From: Dictyostelium discoideum | Lineage: Eukaryota | Direction of reading: 5' to 3' | DNA length: 64,000 nucleotides | NCBI GenBank assembly: GCA_000004695.1 | Contig: CM000153.2 | Location: forward strand, 1,312,001-1,376,000 | In this document: in pieces, positions 8,137 to 8,997 of the stretch | How the letters are laid out: every line of letters starts with the position of its first letter | Numbering within the stretch: the first letter of the stretch is position 1 | Notes under the pieces: model-generated | Told to the model about the DNA's origin: nothing | The model's input: the letters and a program-made list of their open reading frames with translations, nothing else | Databases searched by the model: none | Position numbers and translations under genes: made by a program

Positions 8137-8997
8137 TTTAGATTTCAAATTATCTATTTATTATAATACTTGTAACTATTGAAATGAATTATTTAAATGA
8201 GTATTTTTATATCTTCTTTCAAAAAGAAACGAATATTTAAATAATTTTTTTTTTTTTACCTCTATTTATTTTTTTTTTTTTTTTTTTTTTTTTTCTTTCT
8301 TAAGTTAGATAACCACCATTCTTTATAATTTGGATGGAAAATTTTTACAGATAATCATTGGAGGGAACATATATACACGTGCAAATGGGAAAACCCCTTT
8401 CTTTTTAAAACAATAAATAAATTTTAACTTTACATAATTACCTTCGTCCATAAATCCAAATAATAATAAATTTCTAAAATTACTGCTTTAATAAATTTTA
8501 TTGGAATGCTTCCACTTAAATCTTTATTTTGGGGGTGAAAATTTGTTTTTTTGTTTCTTGTTTTTTTTTTTTACCCCTACCACTCCTTGACTTTTTTTTA
8601 ATATCTCCCATTTTTATAATTTCATTTTTGTTTCATATAACCAAAAAGTCAAAAAAAGTTAACTTTTTTTTTTCATAAAATTTGTGATTGGACCACTTCA
8701 AAAATTTTTGCACAAATTATCTATAACTTTTTTTTTGCACTGCAATTGACCTTTTAATCGACTTACCAATTGTTGGTGATTAAAATATAAATAAATAAAA
8801 AATAAAAATAAAATAAAAATAAAAATAAACCCGCCATTGAAAAAAAATTGTTGAAAAGTCTTTATATTGTTTTTTTTTAATTATATAACGATATAGAGGA
8901 TAGAAAAAAAAAAAAAAAATTGTGTAGAAAAAAAAAAATATAAAAAAAAAAAAAAAAAAAAATATAGCTTTAAATTTAAAATTTTATATTAAGAAAA
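8137..8997. promoter_or_regulatory. Bidirectional intergenic promoter region between the divergent PKS-A and P450-A start codons
   Basis: 861 bp between two ATGs on opposite strands. It contains motifs conserved in the paralogous region 18598-19359: AAATAACCACCATT; AAATTTGTGATTG(G/A)ACCACTT; TAATCGACT(T/C)ACCAATT..GTTGGTGATTAAA. Confidence 0.5.

Follow-up and report, generated by a model that had tools for sequence, protein, structure and literature searches.

A head-to-head polyketide synthase/P450 promoter spacer in Dictyostelium discoideum with one candidate cis-element, AACCACC

We analysed the spacer between the divergently transcribed genes pks22 and cyp517A1, which encode a polyketide synthase (PKS) and a cytochrome P450 (P450), in a 64,000-nucleotide stretch of Dictyostelium discoideum AX4 chromosome 4 (hereafter the window). 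On balance, the spacer is probably a head-to-head biosynthetic promoter in which conservation largely reflects descent together with slippage-driven indels, and which contains one credible candidate cis-element, the heptamer AACCACC. The PKS/P450 unit is tandemly duplicated (10.4 kb), with pks22–cyp517A1 followed by pks23–cyp517A4, and the two spacers, A and B, are each bounded exactly by the PKS start codon (CAT on the + strand) and the P450 ATG. An earlier note on this DNA had listed three motifs, here called M1, M2 and M3, as elements retained in both spacers, and all three are indeed found in both, arranged as follows.

8137-8997: spacer A, the pks22/cyp517A1 divergent intergenic region, 861 bp, 19.3% G+C
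18598-19359: spacer B, the pks23/cyp517A4 divergent intergenic region, 762 bp, 14.4% G+C
8307-8320, + strand: M1 in copy A, AGATAACCACCATT, matching the string quoted in the earlier note at 13 of 14 positions, with the core AACCACC at 8311-8317
18730-18743, + strand: first M1 in copy B, AAATAACCACCATT
18794-18807, + strand: second M1 in copy B, AAATAACCACCATT, the product of a 64-bp tandem duplication (18673-18808)
8678-8698, + strand: M2 in copy A, AAATTTGTGATTGGACCACTT
19083-19103, + strand: M2 in copy B, AAATTTGTGATTGAACCACTT
8765-8784, + strand: M3 in copy A, ACCAATTGTTGGTGATTAAA (ACCAATT followed by GTTGGTGATTAAA), a short near-palindrome, ACCAA/TTGGT
19169-19192, + strand: M3 in copy B, ACCAATTAATTGTTGGTGATTAAA, with a 4-nt insert; together with the preceding C its arms read CACCAA/TTGGTG

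The M1 string was quoted correctly for copy B, where the tandem duplication accounts for its second occurrence, but only approximately for copy A. Within the window the M1, M2 and M3 strings are unique to the spacers, apart from two one-mismatch matches to M3b (GTTGGTGATTAAATCATAA) in the two PKS coding regions. The comparison across relatives covered seven spacer variants of the D. discoideum complex, the two AX4 spacers among them, together with the spacers of D. citrinum, D. dimigraforme and D. firmibasis; orthologous loci were retrieved via the P450 protein, and the newer assemblies originate from a long-read study (PMC12745789).

The AACCACC core of M1 is a reasonable candidate for a factor-binding site, and the best-supported one in the spacer; it would be kept by turnover rather than by position. 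Over seven spacers, AACCACC ranks first of 1122 7-mers, with seven occurrences against 0.22 expected from a background of 37 kb of intergenic DNA (taken from the window and the retrieved loci), in which it occurs once. In the outgroup spacers considered by themselves (2.07 kb), it was found three times against 0.08 expected (P = 9e-5, or about 0.004 when corrected for the 41 words derived from the motifs of the earlier note); D. citrinum accounts for two of these copies, one on each strand, and D. firmibasis for the third. Because the heptamer reappears in other species at new positions and in both orientations, its pattern suggests binding-site turnover. Words shared by spacers A and B also exceed shuffles in the outgroup spacers (k = 7: 9 versus 2.8, P = 0.006). 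The 12 other copies of AACCACC in the window all lie in coding sequence or long open reading frames (ORFs), 11 of them in protein-coding genes; the copy at 45613 falls in a 150-aa GTG ORF of uncertain coding status, on the opposite strand to the gene that it overlaps.

Several points weigh against this assignment. The core is mutated in ACTFIR (AACCCC) and ACTFIY (AACCCCC), and it is absent from the spacers of FIZ_x, one of the ACTFIZ paralogues, and of D. dimigraforme. The 7-mer was chosen after the fact, the correction was taken over 41 or 1122 words, the background amounts to just 37 kb, and the occurrences within the D. discoideum complex are not mutually independent. Moreover, all functional roles proposed here are read from sequence patterns. 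M1 as a whole is matched at 12 or more of its 14 positions in five of the seven complex variants and its core is intact in four, and the full 14-mer was not found outside the complex.

Two side observations concern M1. The lone background copy of AACCACC is part of an 11-nt match to M1, AACCACCATTT (L002 563-573), and lies just 3' of the PKS end in D. dimigraforme; this species alone lacks the heptamer in its PKS/P450 spacer. In copy A, M1 carries AGATAACC instead of AAATAACC, which creates a second GATA-type core, AGATAA, near an island shared by both spacers (ACAGATAATCA, see below).

In Dictyostelium, the G-box binding factor (GBF) binds C/A-rich elements in post-aggregative promoters. Strings of the type ACCACC, ACCACACC and CCCACCAC recur in the spacers and may resemble such elements. 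To our knowledge, AACCACC is not a recognised GBF site.

The sharing of the motifs between the two spacers is a matter of common descent of the two copies and not of coincidence. The motifs are also not special in their context, as at least eight islands follow one another colinearly in both spacers, with variable tracts of low complexity and a few sizeable indels between them. The earlier description of the spacer as mostly A/T homopolymer captured its composition (81-86% A+T) but overstated the homopolymer, since 26-34% of bases lie in homopolymer runs of at least 5, and 45-60% in G/C-free stretches of at least 10 nt. The accompanying statement that a few elements are retained holds for the three motifs and understates the rest; it missed the longest island, a run of 27 nt beside the PKS start. 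The further islands and the segment that interrupts them are:

8170-8196 (B: 18631-18657): M0, TTGTAACTATTGAAATGAATTATTTAA, a 27-nt run identical in A and B, the longest, 34-60 nt upstream of the PKS ATG
8233-8244 (B: 18695-18706): TATA-like block ATATTTAAATAA, about 100 nt upstream of the PKS ATG
8347-8357 (B: 18832-18842), + strand: island ACAGATAATCA, containing the GATA-type core AGATAA
8358-8492: segment of about 135 bp present in spacer A, ACTFIR, ACTFIY and FIZ_x and partly in FIZ_y, with an A-run in its place in spacer B and ACTFIW
8493-8508 (B: 18862-18877), + strand: island AAATTTTATTGGAATG, common to A and B
8643-8658 (B: 19030-19045), + strand: island AAAAAGTCAAAAAAAG, common to A and B

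Further identical A/B runs of at least 12 nt that include G or C are TCATTTTTGTTT (8622) and AAAAAAAATTGTTG (8840), and the word GTCAAAA, from the island at 8643-8658, is enriched across the spacers. Within the complex, the two blocks nearest the PKS are present in all seven variants, M0 scoring 22-26 of 26 and the TATA-like block 9-12 of 12. Island ACAGATAATCA scores 9-11 of 11 in six of the seven (AX4 A, AX4 B, ACTFIW and ACTFIR, with one or two changes in ACTFIY and FIZ_y), and M3b scores 17-19 of 19, likewise in six.

The earlier note took retention within a drifting spacer as a sign of function. Positive evidence across species exists for the AACCACC core alone, and the lengths of the retained runs do not carry the argument: the identical runs in M1, M2 and M3 measure 12, 16 and 17 nt, and the longest run expected by chance has a mean of 17.9 nt (95th percentile 25). 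Since A and B are about 80% identical, motif runs of 12-17 nt are expected without selection. Retention in orthologous promoters, which the note had proposed to examine, largely fails. None of the full motifs was found at two to four mismatches in the spacers of D. citrinum, D. dimigraforme and D. firmibasis, and composition-weighted local alignment between species rose above shuffles only for spacer B against D. dimigraforme (AATTACCACACC..TTTTTTATAA, z = 4), a block that the earlier note did not list; a match of TAACCACCA to D. firmibasis is at shuffle level.

M2 and M3 fare differently from each other. Among the seven complex variants M2 is intact in three, is reduced to a 15-nt core in FIZ_y and to 16 of 21 positions in FIZ_x, and is deleted in ACTFIR and ACTFIY, whose genes are still called at approximately full length (PKS of 2492 and 2496 aa, P450 of 483 aa). 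M2 is, to judge by these gene models, dispensable in relatives. M3 does not occur in the spacers of the three outgroup species, where its sub-words are at background level; we regard it as a weaker candidate site that may hold within the D. discoideum complex. No sub-word of either M2 or M3 (GTGATT and TTGGTG among them) reached significance once corrected. In FIZ_x all three motifs are degraded.

Two specific interpretations of these motifs were considered and rejected. A CCAAT box (NF-Y site) in M2 is not a shared feature, as GATTGG (= CCAATC) is found in copy A only, GATTGA occupies the position in copy B, ACTFIW and FIZ_y, and most variants carry TCAAT. M3 is not a significant palindrome in AX4, where its inverted repeat is at shuffle level (z = 0.5-1.4).

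These results bear directly on a purely neutral account, in which the motifs, AACCACC included, are non-functional and the islands are simply stretches left unhit because mutation concentrates in the A/T tracts. The chance-level run lengths, the deletion of M2 in two strains and the degradation of all three motifs in FIZ_x beside genes called at approximately full length, the lack of any full motif in three other species, and cross-species alignments at shuffle level but for one block outside the motifs are all as this account would have it. It leaves less well explained that AACCACC, present once in the 37-kb background, recurs in D. citrinum and D. firmibasis, that A/B-shared words are over-represented in the outgroup spacers, and that 14 identical A/B runs of at least 12 nt were counted against 4.3 expected from permuted columns. 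The last figure indicates conservation patchier than a uniform model predicts, although part of the patchiness arises where the alignment pairs indel segments that are not homologous. We hold the neutral account to be possible but doubtful. The opposite proposal, made in the earlier note, is that M1, M2 and M3 are all functional elements shared by the PKS and the P450, which they would drive together from a single bidirectional promoter. The head-to-head arrangement on which it builds is real and was found in every relative examined, AX4 A, AX4 B, ACTFIW and FIZ_y keep all three motifs in unchanged order, and D. discoideum offers a precedent in the co-expressed pair DdTPS8-CYP521A1 with its 685-bp spacer (PMC6524965). 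Against it stand the absence of M2 from ACTFIR and ACTFIY, the degradation of the motifs in FIZ_x and their absence as full strings from the three outgroup species; in addition, M1 lies near the PKS and M2 and M3 near the P450, which makes gene-specific roles at least as likely. We consider joint function of all three motifs quite unlikely.

It is very improbable that the islands represent an unannotated spacer transcript (a small RNA or micro-ORF) instead of promoter elements. Islands of complex sequence and the short M3 palindrome could in principle be features of an RNA, but an Rfam scan of 7000-22000 at E ≤1 gave no match in either spacer (one weak match to a miRNA model lies inside pks23), ARAGORN found no tRNA in the whole window, and no ORF of at least 30 aa is common to both spacers, the ORFs differing in position, strand and sequence. 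The shuffle-level inverted repeat of M3 in AX4 also argues against this explanation.

We favour a promoter spacer shaped mainly by descent and slippage, with AACCACC as its one credible candidate element. The spacer would change mainly by slippage and indels in the A/T tracts and by local duplications, while blocks of complex sequence would persist as colinear islands. The TATA-like block at 8233-8244 and the conserved leader or start-site region at 8170-8196 may constitute the PKS core promoter, and that of the P450 may lie within the A-rich stretch of 100 bp preceding 8998. Sites for upstream factors would then be located between the two core promoters, with the AACCACC of M1 as the best candidate. 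At about 175 nt from the PKS ATG, M1 is more likely a PKS-side element, and M2 and M3, at 215-320 nt from the P450 ATG, would be on the P450 side.

A more elaborate version of this reading holds that AACCACC is the binding site of a regulator, that local direct and inverted duplications of the modules bearing it repeatedly rebuild the spacer such that the element comes to face both genes, and that gene conversion spares the spacers and so allows regulatory subfunctionalisation of the two units. The instances of rebuilding that can be cited are the 64-bp tandem duplication in copy B and palindromes of 100-170 bp in D. firmibasis, D. citrinum and ACTFIZ. We put this forward as a speculation that is rather unlikely to hold in full.

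The palindromes themselves are long inverted duplications in mid-spacer. In D. firmibasis (L003 9719-9889) the arms comprise 56 nt at 80% and 23 nt at 96% identity, and each arm carries TAACCAC[C/T]. In D. citrinum (L001 about 9414-9680) the arms are about 105 nt long, and unit y of ACTFIZ (L007 20253-20366) has arms of 43 nt at 88% identity with M3 at their centre. A score of at least 60 in this respect was reached by three of nine independent spacers, versus one of 47 background intergenic tiles scoring at least 50 (Fisher P = 0.011). Neither AX4 spacer contains a long inverted duplication.

Spacers A and B are 73-81% identical over aligned columns, with an additional 209-295 gap columns, which bears out the earlier statement that the spacer drifts fast. 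The caveat attached to it, that the copies might have diverged too little for conservation to be informative, does not apply to the spacer; it is the gene bodies that are nearly identical (96.5-100% at four-fold sites). The PKS copies are 96.5-96.8% identical at four-fold sites, and identity at such sites reaches 100% in P450 exon 3 and in the last ~0.5 kb of the large PKS exon (its PKS-5'-proximal end). Toward the 5' ends of the genes, A/B identity drops stepwise, to 95% in PKS exon 1, 89.5% in P450 exon 1 and 83-94% in the first introns. The ACTFIZ paralogues show the same disparity, with 97.6-100% identity at four-fold sites versus 71.5% in the spacers. Between strains the picture is different: AX4 differs from the others at 6.5-10% of four-fold sites, and spacer B is 90-91% identical to the single-copy ACTFIW spacer, to which it is much nearer than to spacer A. 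As four-fold sites in the latter comparison are 92-93% identical, substitutions in the spacer appear to accumulate at a roughly neutral rate, with indels on top.

Because the spacers are far more diverged than the gene bodies, we consider it most likely that gene conversion or unequal exchange keeps the gene bodies evolving in concert and that the spacers and the 5' ends of the genes escape it. Homogenisation of the gene bodies would halt near the 5' ends, such that the spacers keep an older and much larger divergence. The conversion tracts would end within two stretches, of 585 bp (6547-7132) and 861 bp (9654-10515), over which the copies do not differ. Gene conversion is known to make tandem paralogues evolve in concert while their regulatory regions escape homogenisation, and the locus resembles this general case: within a genome, four-fold sites are 96.5-100% identical between paralogues, compared with 90-93.5% for orthologues of different strains, and the 5' ends and spacers stay divergent. 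Conversion is, however, read here from the pattern of identity alone, and the same pattern could conceivably arise if the units had been duplicated independently and recently and their promoters had decayed unusually fast. If evolution in concert is the correct explanation, the locus is a clean, small example of gene bodies homogenised and promoters diverging, which bears on the regulation of duplicated biosynthetic clusters.

Two further observations concern the comparison of the two units. The P450 copies differ at 15 residues, of which 12 lie within residues 4-143 and three within 454-465, with 310 identical residues between them; 15 of the differing codons are non-synonymous and eight synonymous. 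The assembly ACTFIT (GCA_054883475.1; loci L005 and L006) agrees with the window at all 425 A/B-distinguishing substitution sites, with the central cassette (the PKS 5' ~1 kb, the spacer and the 5' half of the P450) in the opposite unit, so that position 1 reads A|B|A and position 2 B|A|B. The swapped regions are about 6547-10515 and 16970-20870, with the switch points within 6547-7132 and 9654-10515. The swap reflects a mis-join in one of the assemblies (possibly in the AX4 reference from the Sanger era) or else a double reciprocal exchange between laboratory lineages, and it decides which spacer truly belongs to pks22 and which to pks23.

Head-to-head pairs of a biosynthetic enzyme and a P450 have been described in D. 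discoideum before, namely DdTPS8-CYP521A1, which is co-expressed, and DdTPS2-CYP519C1, with a spacer of 580 bp (PMC6524965). As in those pairs, the core enzyme and the P450 described here stand back to back, 0.5-0.9 kb apart. Relatives retain the pairing, as one would expect if the two enzymes catalyse steps of the same pathway. The present locus differs in that the core enzyme is a 2499-aa type I PKS instead of a terpene synthase and in that the unit is tandemly duplicated and variable in copy number. The paper on the DdTPS pairs defines no promoter motifs (PMC6524965), and we found nothing relevant in the literature on the expression of cyp517A or pks22/23.

Bidirectional promoters are also familiar from fungal secondary-metabolite clusters, where a spacer of at most 1 kb between divergent genes is thought to permit joint control. 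The PKS/P450 spacers share this arrangement, a spacer of at most 1 kb between divergent cluster genes, but unlike their fungal counterparts they are 81-86% A+T and turn over by slippage, so that conserved sequence is a weak guide in this DNA. Of the roughly 40 PKS genes in Dictyostelium, hardly any has a product or regulator known to us. A cis-element validated for a conserved cluster of PKS, P450 and dehydrogenase genes would give a handle on when, and by what, the cluster is switched on. As it stands, we are dealing with an ordinary promoter with one testable candidate site, which is of modest interest.

The genes of the two units and their neighbour are:

340-8136, - strand: pks22 (Q54QD3, DDB_G0284001), the PKS of unit A, exons 8136-7988, 7823-7348 and 7214-340
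8998-10607, + strand: cyp517A1 (Q54QD2), exons 8998-9054, 9141-9584 and 9657-10607
10762-18597, - strand: pks23 (Q54QD1, DDB_G0283931), the PKS of unit B, assigned by exact protein look-up
19360-20963, + strand: cyp517A4 (Q54QD0), exons 19360-19416, 19490-19933 and 20013-20963
21704-22645, + strand: short-chain dehydrogenase gene (Pfam adh_short, E = 5e-40), directly 3' of the second unit

The spliced model of pks22 encodes 2499 aa and is identical to AX4 'Probable polyketide synthase 22' by exact protein look-up; the 483-aa translation of cyp517A1 is likewise identical to the AX4 protein, and pks23 and cyp517A4 are also named by exact protein matches. The PKS contains KS, AT, MT, ER, KR and ACP domains, adjoins the P450 and has the short-chain dehydrogenase downstream, which is a possible third member of the gene cluster. 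ACTFIT and ACTFIR have the same dehydrogenase neighbour as the window; in ACTFIW the position is taken by a 329-aa gene that has no Pfam match on record and is ~95% identical in DNA sequence to the dehydrogenase gene of the window. ComC-like genes are found instead of the dehydrogenase 3' of the P450 in D. citrinum and D. dimigraforme.

The head-to-head pairing of a PKS on the - strand with a P450 on the + strand, 505-994 bp apart, was found in D. citrinum, D. dimigraforme and D. firmibasis, and in five assemblies of the complex (ACTFIW, ACTFIR, ACTFIY, ACTFIZ and ACTFIT). Four-fold sites of D. citrinum and D. dimigraforme are 76-78% identical to those of AX4. The PKS thus sits next to tailoring enzymes, and its pairing with the P450 is retained in every relative examined; the nearest paralogous P450 (54% identity, locus L008) does not adjoin a PKS and so supplies no further PKS promoter for comparison. 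Copy number of the unit varies, with one copy in ACTFIW, ACTFIR, ACTFIY, D. citrinum and D. firmibasis, two in AX4 and ACTFIT, and at least three in ACTFIZ. In D. dimigraforme a single unit is accompanied by a second P450 that has no PKS.

Elsewhere in the window, the - strand of 43398-50111 contains an ORF of 2237 aa with unusually high G+C (up to 36%) and strong GC skew. Despite its PKS-like length it is not a PKS, and it has a single match to a Myb DNA-binding domain.

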